Origin: Escherichia phage SKA64
Sequence record: OM362897.1
Direction: 5' to 3' (one strand)
DNA: 64,000 nucleotides
Shown here: positions 4,864 through 51,819 of the stretch, piece after piece
Position numbering within the stretch: the stretch's first letter is position 1
Layout: every line of letters starts with the position of its first letter
The notes under the pieces: generated by a model
What the model was told of the DNA's origin: nothing
Databases searched by the model: none
What the model saw: only the letters and a program-made list of their open reading frames with translations
Translations under genes and position numbers: made by a program

Positions 4864-5445
4864 ATGGCAGAACTGTTCTATACGGGAGTTGGAAGTAGAG
4901 ACATATCCGAAGAAGAGTGGGCTTTGATGGTAGGCATAGGGAAATGGCTTTCAAACCTTGGGTTTAAATTAAGGTCTGGGAAGGCAGAGGGTAGTGATTC
5001 TGCTTTTGAAACAGGTGTCCAAGAGTCTGAAAATCCTACTAACAAGGAGATTTATGTTCCTTGGGAAAATTTCAAAGGTAATCAGATTCCAGGGGATGTT
5101 ATTGTTCTTGCAAAACCAGATACAATGAACTATGCTATCTCTGTGCAATGGATCAAAGATGTTCACCCAGCCTATGAAAAGCTTAAGCAGGGTGCTAGAA
5201 AATTGCACCAACGTAATGTGCATCAAGTGTTAGGTAGAGATTTGGAGAATCCTGCTCCATCATGTTTCTTGTTGGCTTGTGCTAATACTGATAAACATGG
5301 AGATGCAAAAGGTGGAACAGCTACGGCTTGGAAGATAGCTAAAGCCAATAATGTTCCTTGTTTAAATATTCGTGGGAAAACAAAACAAGAGATTTACGAT
5401 TTTCTACGACCTTTGGTAATGAGGGCAATAACAAGTGATTCCTAG
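4864..5445 (+). CDS. DprA/LOG-like (SLOG) Rossmann-fold protein
   Basis: ATG 4864 after GAGGTG; YTGVGSR...LSNLGFKLRSGKAEGSDSAFETG matches GSR...G..L.SG.A.G.D.A pattern of DprA/Smf/LOG fold. Confidence 0.45.
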   Translation: MAELFYTGVGSRDISEEEWALMVGIGKWLSNLGFKLRSGKAEGSDSAFETGVQESENPTNKEIYVPWENFKGNQIPGDVIVLAKPDTMNYAISVQWIKDVHPAYEKLKQGARKLHQRNVHQVLGRDLENPAPSCFLLACANTDKHGDAKGGTATAWKIAKANNVPCLNIRGKTKQEIYDFLRPLVMRAITSDS

Positions 5446-5947
5446 ACGTAAACGTGGTGAACAAAGAACAAACTTGGCAGAAATCTTAGATTACAACATG
5501 GTTAATGATGTGACAAAAGAAATTCTCCCTGTTGTAGAAGATATTCTTCGTAGAGGGTTACGATTCTGCTCGGATCGGGTGCATTTCATGTGGACACATA
5601 AAAGTGACTCCTCTTTGAATTTTTATCCTTTAGACTATACTCTGAACAATACGGAGATGAAAGATATCAACAAATATTTAATGGGATATAAAGATATAAC
5701 CGAAACTGTTCTTGGAGAATTGGCAGAAATCTTGGCTAATGATATCCTTAGAAATATTAATAAGGCTCTTGACAGAAGCCCAGCAGGAGTAGTAGTATCT
5801 TTTGCTGTGCCAGATATGGTTAAATATGAGTCTACAATACCTAATAAAGCTTATGCCTTTCTTCGGAGAGACGTTCGTGGAAATGTGTTGGAGATGGAGT
5901 CAAACTACAAGATTGAGGAGGTTTTATGGCAGAGTTCGGATCAGTAA
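5435..5947 (+). CDS. hypothetical protein
   Basis: ORF track; GTG start overlapping upstream stop; alternative ATG at about 5495. Confidence 0.45.
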   Translation: MIPRRKRGEQRTNLAEILDYNMVNDVTKEILPVVEDILRRGLRFCSDRVHFMWTHKSDSSLNFYPLDYTLNNTEMKDINKYLMGYKDITETVLGELAEILANDILRNINKALDRSPAGVVVSFAVPDMVKYESTIPNKAYAFLRRDVRGNVLEMESNYKIEEVLWQSSDQ

Positions 5948-6216
5948 CAAGTTTTGAAAGTAACTTCGTTACCGCTTGGGAAGCTTGGGATGAAATGGGT
6001 GTTGGGGAACTTTATTTTTACAATGTAACACTACGTCCAGAGTATGCTTACCTGGTACCAGAAGGAACAGTTCAAATTGGCATGTATTTGTCTTCTCAAG
6101 ACGGTGTTGTTCAATTTGAGTTTTATTCTAACACAACGGACAACGAATTTACATACCGCGCATTTCATGTCAACATGTCTTTAGGAGAGGAGAAATTTTA
6201 TGACGACCAAGTTTAA
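5926..6216 (+). CDS. hypothetical protein
   Basis: ORF track; GAGGAGG upstream. Confidence 0.45.
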   Translation: MAEFGSVTSFESNFVTAWEAWDEMGVGELYFYNVTLRPEYAYLVPEGTVQIGMYLSSQDGVVQFEFYSNTTDNEFTYRAFHVNMSLGEEKFYDDQV

Positions 6217-6397
6217 AACAGTAGAAGAAGCCGTAAAAGCAGCTTATGAGGCTTTAGCGGAAGCAGAACAGTTAGCAGACGAGACTGGTGAAGGTTTCAG
6301 TTTCTCCCCTGAATATGGGATGGGTGGTTATTATGATCCAGAAGATGAAAATGAGAATACTGGAACAAATTGGCATCCATCTTCTTTAAGTTGTTAA
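6200..6397 (+). CDS. small acidic protein, member of tandem family with C-terminal W-x-SS-x-SC
   Basis: ORF track; ends TNWHPSSLSC. Confidence 0.5.
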   Translation: MTTKFKTVEEAVKAAYEALAEAEQLADETGEGFSFSPEYGMGGYYDPEDENENTGTNWHPSSLSC

Positions 6398-6408
6398 TAG
6401 GAGGTAAA

Positions 6409-6678
6409 GTGGGAATCGAAGATATCAAAGGTTATAAACCGCATACCGATGACAAAATTGGTAAAGTGAATGCTATTAAAGATGCTGAAGTTCGATTAGG
6501 ATTAATCTTTGATGCTCTAATGTCTGAATTGTGGGCTGAACTGGATGATTGTGAAGATTTGGAAGAGTCTACCAATATATCCACCCGCCTTGACCAAATT
6601 TCAATAGCAAAGACTAAGTTGAAAGAAGCTTCTATGTGGGCCTGTCGTTCCGTTTTCCAACCAGAGGAGAAATACTAA
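6409..6678 (+). CDS. hypothetical protein
   Basis: in-frame GTG at 6409 after AGGAGG (6399-6404) preferred over track start 6370. Confidence 0.4.
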   Translation: MGIEDIKGYKPHTDDKIGKVNAIKDAEVRLGLIFDALMSELWAELDDCEDLEESTNISTRLDQISIAKTKLKEASMWACRSVFQPEEKY

Positions 6679-6896
6679 TGAGTTATCGTAATGTTGAAGA
6701 ATTAACTGAAAAAGCCCAAGCTATTATGGCTTTGGTGGACGAACTTACAAAAGAAGCTGAAGATGCTGGTTTTGGTCTTAGTTTAGAAGATGACGCAATC
6801 TGTTTTGAAGATTGGCAATCCTCTTCTTGTTATGGTGAAGGTGATGATGGTTTCGTTGTTAATTCTCAAGGCGTTTGGCACAGTAGTAGCTGTTAA
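6678..6896 (+). CDS. small acidic protein, tandem family member
   Basis: ATG 6678 after GAGGAG; ends QGVWHSSSC. Confidence 0.5.
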   Translation: MSYRNVEELTEKAQAIMALVDELTKEAEDAGFGLSLEDDAICFEDWQSSSCYGEGDDGFVVNSQGVWHSSSC

Positions 6897-6905
6897 GGAG
6901 AGATT

Positions 6906-7178
6906 GTGGAGTCTGAAGGTGAACTGCTGATAAAAAAGAAAGTTAAAGAGATGGAACAAGCACAAAGAAAGTTTCGTAAGGAAATTGAAGAACTTTGTGA
7001 ACAGTTTCAGGAACAAGCTTGGATAGGTGACTACGGTAACGGAGAAACTTATTACCCTACAGGAACGCCAGCCGCAGATCACTATATTGATTTCATTTGT
7101 GAAGATTATGGTGTAGAGTTGGATGAAAATGGTTTAACCACAAGAGGTGTTTGGATCTCTTCTTCCTCAATGTGTTAG
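6906..7178 (+). CDS. small acidic protein, tandem family member
   Basis: GTG 6906 after AAGGAGAG; ends RGVWISSSSMC. Confidence 0.5.
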   Translation: MESEGELLIKKKVKEMEQAQRKFRKEIEELCEQFQEQAWIGDYGNGETYYPTGTPAADHYIDFICEDYGVELDENGLTTRGVWISSSSMC

Positions 7179-7186
7179 TAAATAAT

Positions 7187-7210
7187 AACCCGCTTCGGCG
7201 GGTTTTTTAT
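7187..7210 (+). terminator. rho-independent terminator
   Basis: aacccgcttcggcgggtt hairpin followed by TTTTTT. Confidence 0.7.
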
Positions 7211-7238
7211 TGACAGGAATCTGGAAGCCTGATAAACT
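7210..7238 (+). promoter_or_regulatory. sigma70-like promoter
   Basis: TTGACA, 17 bp spacer, TAAACT, about 30 nt upstream of gene at 7269. Confidence 0.4.
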
Positions 7239-7268
7239 TAACCTATCAACCAATAGAGGAGAAATATT

Positions 7269-8210
7269 ATGGTGTTAATTGGTAGCCGTGCATTACAAAT
7301 TCATGCTATGGACATGGGAAAAGACTTGTATCGCCCTTGTGTAGATTTAGATTACCTGTGTACAGAACAAGAGTGGGAAGAATTATCAAAAATGTTCTCT
7401 CAAGACGAGTTTGTTGAACTTGTAGAACGTAAAGGGAGCAAAGGCCATGTCAAAATGATAGCTGGTGCACATTTGGAATACGATATTGCTTCTCAAGGAG
7501 ATAGCACAGAAGCTTTGATTAGTTATTGTGAAGATTCTGATGATGTTCGTCGAACTTACGCTGGACATGTTGTTGCTCCTTTAGATGTGCTCTACCTTCT
7601 TAAAATGAGTCATCGTTTTAAAAAGGATAGTCCTCACTTCTTTAAAACTATGAAAGATATTCATTTCATGCGGTCACTGGGCGCAAAGATCCCAGAAAAT
7701 CTTAAGAGTATTTATGAGTTGCGTGAGAAAGAAACATACACTTACTCTCATCCGAACTTAAACGTAAAAAGTAAAGAGTTCTTTAAAGGTGACGAGGTTC
7801 CGTATGTTTATGATCATGATTCTATCCATGAAGCAATCGCGTTAATGGATGCTCCAGCATATAAATCTTATATGAAAGATGGAAGTGAAGTTATGACCAG
7901 CAAAGAAAAGTTTTTTGCTCAACCAAAACATGTGCGGCTGTTAGGTGTTTATGAAGAAGCGTGTGTTTTGGCTTTGGAACGTTCACAAATTCCTTTCGGT
8001 GAAGAGATCGGAGGTCCAACCCCTAAGCAAAGTTTTATAATGGCTTTATCTAAAGTCTGCACATCCATCACTAGTGGTTGGTTTAGGGAATATGCTTGGG
8101 AAAACTTTTATGTTGTTATTAAGCTATATGAAAACATGGGCGAAAACGACTATGTTGAACGTTTTAAAGCTAATCAACATGTAGTAAAGCCTTTTGAAGG
8201 AGGTTATTAA
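7269..8210 (+). CDS. hypothetical protein (313 aa); weak minimal-nucleotidyltransferase-like N-terminus
   Basis: ORF track; AGAGGAG RBS; N-terminal LIGSRAL...VDLDYL loosely resembles GS...DxD NTase signature (spacing atypical). Confidence 0.55.
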   Translation: MVLIGSRALQIHAMDMGKDLYRPCVDLDYLCTEQEWEELSKMFSQDEFVELVERKGSKGHVKMIAGAHLEYDIASQGDSTEALISYCEDSDDVRRTYAGHVVAPLDVLYLLKMSHRFKKDSPHFFKTMKDIHFMRSLGAKIPENLKSIYELREKETYTYSHPNLNVKSKEFFKGDEVPYVYDHDSIHEAIALMDAPAYKSYMKDGSEVMTSKEKFFAQPKHVRLLGVYEEACVLALERSQIPFGEEIGGPTPKQSFIMALSKVCTSITSGWFREYAWENFYVVIKLYENMGENDYVERFKANQHVVKPFEGGY

Positions 8211-8211
8211 T

Positions 8212-8607
8212 ATGTGTGGATATCTTTCAGAAAGTTATTTCAAAGTGACGCATGAGGATTTAGAAAAAGCACGATTGAAACTGACAGCTATTATTGAATA
8301 CTCTAATACTGTTGAACACAGATTAAAGACTACTAAAGTATCTGTTCCTTGTTGGTTAGGTTTACGGCATAAAATAATGTCTCAACATGACCATGTTGTT
8401 CGAGAGATGCATGGTTGGTGTTGGTTTCACGATGTGGCTCTGCATTTTGGTTATATTACAGAAGAAGAGCATAGATTCTGTGAACTAACATATCGTATTC
8501 CAACCCTTCACGATTTAGATTTGTGGAAGAAAGCAAACGAGATTTTTCTTACAGAAAGTGATTGGCGTAAAGTTATGGCTTGTCTTGAATGGAGGGGTAA
8601 TGAGTAA
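8212..8607 (+). CDS. hypothetical protein
   Basis: ATG 8212 after GAAGGAGG preferred over TTG 8194. Confidence 0.55.
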   Translation: MCGYLSESYFKVTHEDLEKARLKLTAIIEYSNTVEHRLKTTKVSVPCWLGLRHKIMSQHDHVVREMHGWCWFHDVALHFGYITEEEHRFCELTYRIPTLHDLDLWKKANEIFLTESDWRKVMACLEWRGNE

Positions 8608-23373: not shown

Positions 23374-23595
23374 CTACTCCGAAAGAACATTCACTTCATC
23401 AGAGAAAAATACGTAATCACAACCTTCCCAAACATCTTCTTCAAACCACTCCCATCCCTCAACTTTGGACATTTCTTCTATCGTAACAAAGAATGTTGTC
23501 ATGTCATCGCTAACAAGATGTGCTTCAACAACAAAAGGAATCTGAACATTCTCAAAACCAACATAACCCAATACATCACAAACTCTAATTTTCAT
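23374..23595 (-). CDS. paralog family B member
   Basis: shares W-x-WF-x-E...EG-x-DYVFF with 26970..27200. Confidence 0.5.
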   Translation of the reverse strand: MKIRVCDVLGYVGFENVQIPFVVEAHLVSDDMTTFFVTIEEMSKVEGWEWFEEDVWEGCDYVFFSDEVNVLSE

Positions 23596-26969: not shown

Positions 26970-27200
26970 TTAATAGACAATGTTATATTCGTGAGGAAAG
27001 AAAACATAATCTTCCCCTTCTCGTGCATCTATCTCGTCCCAAAACCATTCCTGCACTTCCATCATCTTCGAGAATCGCACATGAGCAAGCCCACTGTATT
27101 CCACCGTAGCTTCCAGCACAAGTGGAAATTTTGCATGTGCCAATCCTTTATAACCACCATCATTCTCAATACGAATTTTCATGCGTTTCATATTATGCAT
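26970..27200 (-). CDS. paralog family B member
   Basis: MEVQEWFWDEIDAREGEDYVFF matches 23374..23595. Confidence 0.5.
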   Translation of the reverse strand: MHNMKRMKIRIENDGGYKGLAHAKFPLVLEATVEYSGLAHVRFSKMMEVQEWFWDEIDAREGEDYVFFPHEYNIVY

Positions 27201-51032: not shown

Positions 51033-51206
51033 ATGGGAGATAAACAAAGTAACATCCGTTACGCGCTTTATGGAAGAATGGGTGCAGATTGTGAATGGAT
51101 GCTTCTGTCGCAACGTATACCCTCTTACAAAGAGGCTCTTGAAAAAAGAGACTATTATAAACAAACATGGCGTTTTGTCATTTGTAAACACTATTTGGAG
51201 GCGTGA
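51033..51206 (+). CDS. 57 aa small protein (not in ORF track)
   Basis: ATG after AAGGAGG; MGDKQSNIRYALYGRMGADCEWMLLSQ...; track ORF 51070..51294 is alternate frame. Confidence 0.4.
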   Translation: MGDKQSNIRYALYGRMGADCEWMLLSQRIPSYKEALEKRDYYKQTWRFVICKHYLEA

Positions 51207-51514
51207 TGAGTACATTATCATTAGCAGTTACGGTGCACCAGTATTACGAAGAAGCTGTAAAAGATTCAGAAAACCCATCTACATTAGTATTTGAAGATCG
51301 GACTGGTCTTAAATGGGTAGAATATGGGGATGAACTCTACTTTTGGTATCCACAAGGTTGCACAAGTAATTCTAATTTGTATAGTTATGAACTGGAGTAT
51401 CGTGCGCCTGTAGACGAAGATGACAATTACATCATGTATTATGTTAATAATGGTTGCGGTGAAACGTTTAATGTAGTATTCTCTAAAGCCTTGAAGTCCG
51501 ACGAGGAGATGTAA
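51203..51514 (+). CDS. tandem paralog 1
   Basis: TLSLAV..H..Y...VKD...P...F, YELEYRAPVDEDDNYIMYYV shared with next gene. Confidence 0.5.
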   Translation: MMSTLSLAVTVHQYYEEAVKDSENPSTLVFEDRTGLKWVEYGDELYFWYPQGCTSNSNLYSYELEYRAPVDEDDNYIMYYVNNGCGETFNVVFSKALKSDEEM

Positions 51515-51819
51515 TGCAGCACAATACGACTTTAAGTTTGGCAGTTGCAGCCCACATGCTGTACAATGATTCTGTGAAGGATGAGTTGTCGCCTGTGAGT
51601 TTAGCTTTCTATCTGATAGACAGGGATTGGATGTTCTCTGGTGAGGATGAAATCTACTACGTAAATTCACGCGGTTTTATTGAAAGTTTTGAACTTGAAC
51701 ATCGTGCACCAACAGCAGAAGATGATCGTTTTATTATGTTTTGTGTAAAAGATGGTTACGGAGAGGTATATGACGTAGTATTCTTCAAAAACCGACAGAA
51801 GACTGAAGAGGAATTCTAA
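51514..51819 (+). CDS. tandem paralog 2
   Basis: TLSLAVAAHMLYNDSVKDE, FELEHRAPTAEDDRFIMFCV. Confidence 0.5.
   Translation: MQHNTTLSLAVAAHMLYNDSVKDELSPVSLAFYLIDRDWMFSGEDEIYYVNSRGFIESFELEHRAPTAEDDRFIMFCVKDGYGEVYDVVFFKNRQKTEEEF

Follow-up and report, generated by a model that had tools for sequence, protein, structure and literature searches.

The main finding obtained in this work is the genomic linkage, in phages and phage-like contigs, between genes of small acidic proteins that have a Cys-terminal tail in common and a nucleotidyltransferase (NTase) gene located directly downstream. At the level of sequence, the tail array and the MenT-like NTase point to a conserved, phage-specific two-component module that was previously undescribed; no paper, Pfam family or solved structure was found in the literature for the small family or for its pairing with the NTase. 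The window, that is the whole stretch of 64,000 nucleotides analyzed here, belongs to a phAPEC8-like myovirus (Phapecoctavirus), and its region 5400-8300 shares 99.6% identity with Dompiswa phage TSP7_1 and 98.6% with phAPEC8. The genes matched across this region are almost all annotated as "hypothetical", with one overlapping gene annotated as DprA-like in some records.

A family of small acidic proteins with a conserved tail

An earlier note on this DNA had described three tandem ORFs encoding small acidic proteins with similar endings, and the three ORFs are indeed present, all on the plus strand. Paralog 1 (6200..6397, 65 aa, "AYGMGG" subtype) ends in TNWHPSSLSC, with the tail WHPSSLSC-stop at 6371..6394. 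Paralog 2 (6678..6896, 72 aa, "SSCYG" subtype) ends in GVWHSSSC, with a short terminal tail WHSSSC-stop at 6876..6893, and contains in addition, at 6813..6830, a second, internal motif (WQSSSC). Paralog 3 (6906..7178, 90 aa, GTG start, "DYGxGxTYYP" subtype) ends in GVWISSSSMC, with the tail WISSSSMC-stop at 7152..7175. Each of them is preceded by a Shine-Dalgarno sequence 5-9 nt upstream, and their acidity, which the note had also claimed, is pronounced (pI 4.0-4.4; net charge -11, -13 and -10, with pI of 4.05, 4.05 and 4.40 for ORF1, ORF2 and ORF3, respectively). When all stop-to-stop ORFs of at least 35 aa in the whole window were searched with the pattern W.{1,2}[SA]S.{0,3}C$, exactly these three were matched out of 867, against a chance expectation of 0.05 per window obtained by composition-preserving resampling. 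A chance origin of the three tail endings is excluded.

The proposal that these ORFs are tandem paralogs drew its support from profiles, while pairwise BLASTP among them was marginal (E 0.014 and 0.013, with no match for the third pair). All three matched PHROG 899 (E 1.4e-13 for ORF1, 7e-6 for ORF2 and 5.1e-14 for ORF3), the alignment covering the C-terminal end of the profile in each case, as well as the family HMM built here (E 4e-18, 6e-8 and 6e-17, respectively). Because the matches to PHROG 899 and to the family HMM, and not pairwise similarity, unite them, the three ORFs are best interpreted as anciently diverged paralogs and members of PHROG 899. Beyond this family, nothing was found for them in Pfam, NCBIfam, PADLOC or, using the family profile, among PDB sequences. 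The two further paralog pairs listed in the note, 23374..23595 with 26970..27200 (minus strand; BLASTP E 2e-14) and 51203..51514 with 51514..51819 (plus strand; BLASTP E 2e-22), are true paralogs, but they belong to unrelated families without the tail.

Tandem arrays also occur elsewhere, with three copies in the Mosigvirus Bas46 and five in a Kanagawavirus; over 78 loci, 225 members were counted, in arrays of one to six. The order of subtypes recurs within lineages (e.g., DYGxGxTYYP...WISSSEMC, AYGMGG...W-x-SSS-x-C and ...SSCYG...W-x-PSSC), and the array of the window holds one member of each of these three subtypes. This recurring order of recognisable subtypes suggests therefore that the duplications are old and the copies non-redundant. 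Between paralogs 1 and 2 lies a gene of the Acb2/Tad1-hairpin family (6409..6678, plus strand, 89 aa, GTG start; PF24729, E 1.2e-19, 70.7 bits for a cutoff of 27), which is not a member of the tail family; in a Pfam search that included Acb2_Tad1_hairpin, it alone was matched and the three tail ORFs were not. Its product is likely an anti-CBASS/Thoeris nucleotide sponge, and its insertion appears to be lineage-specific, since in the nearest IMG/VR relative (L008) no gene interrupts the row of three paralogs. The presence of this sponge gene inside the array marks the locus as a hotspot of counter-defence genes. A nucleotide-sponge role for the tail proteins themselves was also considered and thought unlikely in view of their strong negative charge. 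Other neighbors of the array are a DprA-like/SLOG-type protein encoded 5' of it (4864..5445, plus strand), the sole further neighbor that recurs in a few of the enzyme clades described below (four of 28), and, in T4-like phages, a conserved Cys-containing ORF of 83-89 aa (MENKMIYYESIG...) that is no member of the tail family and separates the array from the enzyme gene (4840..5091 in L001; 5584..5853 in L002).

The tail family is large, phage-restricted and composed of small, strongly acidic proteins. Homologs were found in at least 439 phage records, mostly of T4-like Straboviridae (Escherichia, Klebsiella, Enterobacter and Aeromonas) plus Phapecoctavirus, and all members are annotated as "hypothetical". 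No description of the family was found in the literature on PHROG 899, RB69ORF139c or C-terminal-cysteine partners. The median length is 81 aa and the median net charge -9. An exhaustive profile search of 1.84 billion representatives yielded 217 metagenomic clusters at 50% identity, and among the best 150 of these 217 cluster representatives, which share less than 50% mutual identity, 143 end in Cys and 142 in the strict motif, defined as W-x-[S/A/P]-S-S-x-x-C-stop (eight residues, as in ORF1 and ORF3) or W-x-[S/P]-S-S-C-stop (six residues, as in ORF2), two forms that together cover all three ORFs of the window. The earlier note had named a lack of this C-terminal similarity in other genomes as what would refute its proposal, and this refutation clearly fails, 142 of 150 representatives keeping the strict motif; the interpretation given in the note is supported in part. 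The eight-residue tails (n = 275) have the consensus G-G-W-[VQILM]-[S/A/P]-S-S-x-x-C-COOH, with Ser(-4) in 100% and Ser(-3) in 97% of them, percentages that partly reflect selection because the set was partly gathered by motif pattern; the independent measure of conservation is thus given by the profile-derived values of 143/150 and 142/150. The short form, W-x-[S/P]-S-S-C, was found in 37 tails. The tail is conserved more strongly than any other feature of the family, in phages of Proteobacteria as well as in contigs binned with Bacteroidota, cyanobacteria and Saccharibacteria. The invariant serines are encoded by all six Ser codons, from both codon boxes, so that selection acts on the tail at the protein level and a DNA- or RNA-level cause of the motif was ruled out.

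Part of this conservation appears to be structural. In the AlphaFold model of paralog 3 (pLDDT 93.1), a helix at residues 4-34 is followed by strands at 38-40, 47-50 and 82-85, and it is because the V-W-I-S segment of the tail is placed in a core beta-strand that pairs with the YG-hairpin that a structural contribution is proposed. Family members would accordingly combine a long helix at the N terminus with a small beta-sheet and a strand at the C terminus, a fold that seems to be family-specific, no solved structure matching it having been found. These predictions invite the alternative that the motif is purely structural, with Trp, Ser-Ser and Cys folding or capping the domain or joining subunits through a metal or a disulfide, and without any recognition of a partner. 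In line with it, the terminal Cys is the sole cysteine in 163 of 328 members, which would permit intermolecular chemistry only. A structural role fails, however, to explain why about 95% of proteins with less than 50% identity stop exactly at the Cys, why 41 of the 328 members carry extra W-x-S-S repeats within acidic linkers, and why the family tracks one enzyme gene, and we consider it quite improbable. The free carboxylate is apparently not required in every copy of the motif, since the ORF2 subtype keeps an internal, non-terminal one.

The downstream nucleotidyltransferase and its linkage to the array

In the window, the array (6200..7178) lies on the same strand as the NTase gene (7269..8210, plus strand), within about 5 kb upstream of it. 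The two are separated by an intrinsic-terminator-like hairpin with a T-run directly after the array (7187..7204, plus strand), annotated as "terminator" in the phAPEC8 and ASO2A records, and by a sigma-70-like promoter, TTGACA, 17 nt, TG-n-TAAACT (7210..7238, plus strand), identified by consensus match only. With these two elements in between, the array could be transcribed separately from the NTase.

The NTase has 313 aa, comprising DUF7277 and DUF7275, and 2,209 homologs. Residues G5-S6, D26-x-D28 and E70, corresponding to Pol-beta motifs I and II and the third carboxylate, are invariant in 35 diverse homologs, and the predicted fold is nearest to MenT1, MenT3 and MenT4. By its predicted fold the protein is a MenT/AbiEii-like Pol-beta nucleotidyltransferase, and its catalytic signature is intact. 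Enzymes of the MenT/AbiEii type are known from bacteria, where they act on tRNA ends as toxins and as effectors of abortive infection. The NTase described here differs from MenT1 in showing no DUF1814/AbiEii sequence match, including the C-terminal motifs III and IV, and in carrying a large helical domain, DUF7275. No sequence match to the PDB was found for the NTase, nor any extra Pfam signal across the 35 members. The DUF7275 domain (residues ~105-300), for which no fold match was obtained, has the invariant residues H115, H123, H161, H183-D184, H187, K112, K126 and R152 as well as an invariant C264-T-S-I-T-S-G270 motif, which suggests a second catalytic or substrate-binding site. In the literature, no description of DUF7275, DUF7277 or phage MenT-like enzymes was found.

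The linkage was observed from both directions. Starting from the enzyme, 71 of 80 IMG/VR loci chosen by the NTase alone carry one to five motif ORFs within symmetric 5-kb flanks. All 204 motif hits lie on the NTase strand, against none among 6,641 opposite-strand ORFs, and 203 of the 204 end 5' of the NTase start, even though the flanks were symmetric. When the enzymes were grouped at 60% identity, the tail family was present in 26 of 28 clades, and the runner-up among real neighbor families in an all-against-all clustering of the neighboring ORFs reached 4 of 28; since no other real neighbor family exceeds four clades, general synteny is ruled out. Five distant phages picked by the NTase alone, of Pseudomonas, Acinetobacter, Stenotrophomonas, Xanthomonas (jumbo) and Aeromonas, each have one to three tail ORFs within 3 kb. 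In the reverse direction, 13 loci of the small proteins were found with a degenerate DNA pattern derived from the peptide, and the NTase lies directly 3' in all 10 of those with enough flank. It is also found 0.2-1.3 kb downstream of three divergent representatives (P0165, P0168 and P0261), and in one locus (L105) the last small ORF runs into the start codon of the NTase. Fusions of the small domain to the NTase, or to another informative domain, were searched for and none was found.

Among 185,579 species genomes, the NTase is encoded on only nine contigs, all of them MAG contigs (binned with Saccharibacteria, Chitinophagales, Bacteriovoracales, Thermosynechococcus or Flavobacteria, and one in an unclassified bin), and in eight of the nine the small family lies upstream. 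The module was found only in phages or phage-like contigs. As to other genes around it, NUDIX, NAMPT and peptidyl-tRNA hydrolase PTH2 genes occur 5' of the module in one locus (L114, 186..3535), and a PRPP-synthetase-like ORF lies directly 3' of the NTase in another (L106, 5632..6543).

The NTase can exist without the tail family, since no member lies within 4-5 kb of the enzymes of one long-form clade (L012-14 and L021), nor of the short-form enzymes (~255-265 aa) encoded in Gordonia, Arthrobacter and KVP40 phages. Among these short-form DUF7275 relatives are those of Gordonia phage Miskis (L110, 3812..4603) and Arthrobacter phage Atuin (L112, 3860..4627). The short-form genes of the Gordonia and Arthrobacter phages, which lack a tail-family neighbor, adjoin or sit in phage tRNA gene clusters, and this hints that the enzyme lineage acts on tRNA. 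An association of the module itself with tRNA clusters was judged weak, tRNA genes being present in 17 of 113 stretches examined and absent from the 64-kb window.

Possible functions of the tail

Our findings suggest the NTase encoded directly downstream as a candidate for the shared partner of the tail, which the earlier note had proposed in general terms. A phage-encoded partner is favored over a host one, since the tail does not vary among phages that infect hosts of different phyla, and an element engaging the NTase is favored because this enzyme is the only universally co-inherited protein. Therefore, we hypothesize, tentatively and at a level that falls somewhat short of probable, that the tail is a shared element that engages the NTase active site, as acceptor or as pseudo-substrate. 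The Trp would anchor the last strand of the small-protein fold, and the Ser-Ser-x-x-Cys-COOH end would be offered to the active site as a substitute for an RNA 3'-OH end. As an acceptor, the tail would undergo Ser-O-nucleotidylylation by the NTase; alternatively, as a pseudo-substrate, it would gate the action of the NTase on tRNA or RNA 3' ends. Specificity would differ among the paralogs through their diverged bodies. Physical contact, the residue used and the role as substrate, regulator or adaptor are, in this hypothesis, what we infer.

Pol-beta NTases with a protein as substrate are known from GlnD-PII, from MNT-HEPN (type VII toxin-antitoxin systems) and from CitX/MdcG-ACP, and they modify a Ser or Tyr hydroxyl of a small partner, often acidic, whose gene lies nearby. 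No sequence or fold relationship of the tail proteins to the partners in these systems was found. A bolder version of the acceptor hypothesis, "tag-and-writer", holds that the NTase nucleotidylylates, or primes on, the Ser-Ser of the tag W-x-S-S-S-x-x-C-COOH, and that the small proteins are adaptors aiming it at different host or RNA targets; we regard it as doubtful. If it were true, it would represent a protein-directed use of a fold known so far for tRNA-end modification, in phages of several phyla.

A different interpretation is that the small acidic proteins are independent early effectors of anti-defence or host takeover, such as nucleic-acid mimics or decoys, that share with the NTase only the island and the timing, the tail binding a host factor or a metal. 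The strong acidity of the family fits this interpretation, as do the position of the array among sigma-70-type early genes, the Acb2-family anti-CBASS sponge gene inserted within it, the terminator and promoter that separate it from the NTase, and the lineages in which the NTase occurs without the tail family. The NTase is itself acidic (net charge -11, pI 5.6), for which reason a charge-driven complex between the array proteins and the enzyme is not favored. Like the tail family, Ocr, Arn, Acb2 and Tad1 are small, acidic and located among early genes, but no sequence or structural similarity to it was found, and those families are not known to have a conserved Cys-terminal tail or an obligate NTase neighbor. 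Independent effectors are, in our opinion, a rather unlikely explanation.

The spacing Ser-Ser-x-x-Cys is reminiscent of the Ser/Ser/Cys motifs found in class III lanthipeptides. This resemblance, the invariant terminal Cys and an adjacent gene that is predicted to encode an enzyme able to activate hydroxyls would agree with a RiPP-like role, in which the tail is cross-linked or its Cys processed (Ser activation and elimination with subsequent Cys addition, lanthionine-like, or decarboxylation), the NTase being the activating enzyme. Nevertheless, no gene for a dehydratase, cyclase, LanD-type flavoprotein, radical-SAM protein or protease recurs nearby, the structure prediction gives folded domains (pLDDT 93) rather than leader-core peptides, the sole lanthipeptide match is sub-threshold and lies outside the tail (NCBIfam, E 0.05), and the six-residue tail has no spacer between Ser and Cys. 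A role of this kind is therefore very improbable.

Relation to known systems and significance

Previous studies offer a precedent for a small partner that blocks an NTase, since MenA1, a helical protein of 68 aa encoded beside MenT1, blocks the MenT1 active site (PMC10435456). MenAT1 of Mycobacterium tuberculosis has a single antitoxin, whereas the module described here has one to six diverged paralogs, and antitoxins of the MenA1 type are found in bacterial genomes, whereas this module is confined to phages and phage-like contigs. Moreover, the C-terminal part of MenA1 is disordered and dispensable (PMC10435456), in contrast to the invariant Cys-terminal tail of the family.

RlaP (PF10127), a Pol-beta NTase encoded by phages, extends damaged RNA or tRNA 3' ends by 1-2 NMPs (PMC12776372). 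In two 1.4-kb contigs (L115, 94..1352; L116, 1..965), a tail-family member overlaps the stop codon of an RlaP gene by 4 nt, and these members end in FWYSSSMSC and GWFSSSMGC, respectively; with contigs this short, a DUF7275 gene may follow beyond their ends. They appear, from this overlap, to be translationally coupled to an enzyme of a second RNA-3'-end NTase family, one that has no profile similarity to the DUF7277/7275 enzyme (hhalign probability 0.1%). T4 has RlaP (NrdC.11), and both the tail family and the DUF7275 enzyme are absent from its first 58 kb. NrdC.3 of T4, suspected by synteny with Aeromonas phage Aes508, was rejected, neither the enzyme nor the family being found in T4 1-58 kb.

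The phages with the tail family include phAPEC8-like ones and most of the non-T4 Tevenvirinae employed in phage therapy and represented in the BASEL collection, and its pairing with a MenT-like NTase offers a first function to test for these "hypothetical" genes. If the tail serves as a tag for nucleotidylylation or docking, it would constitute a new short protein tag with experimental handles. If the small proteins gate a tRNA-end enzyme, the finding would be relevant to the ways in which large lytic phages protect or reprogram translation. The pairing would also extend MenT/AbiEii-type biology to the phage side of the conflict.
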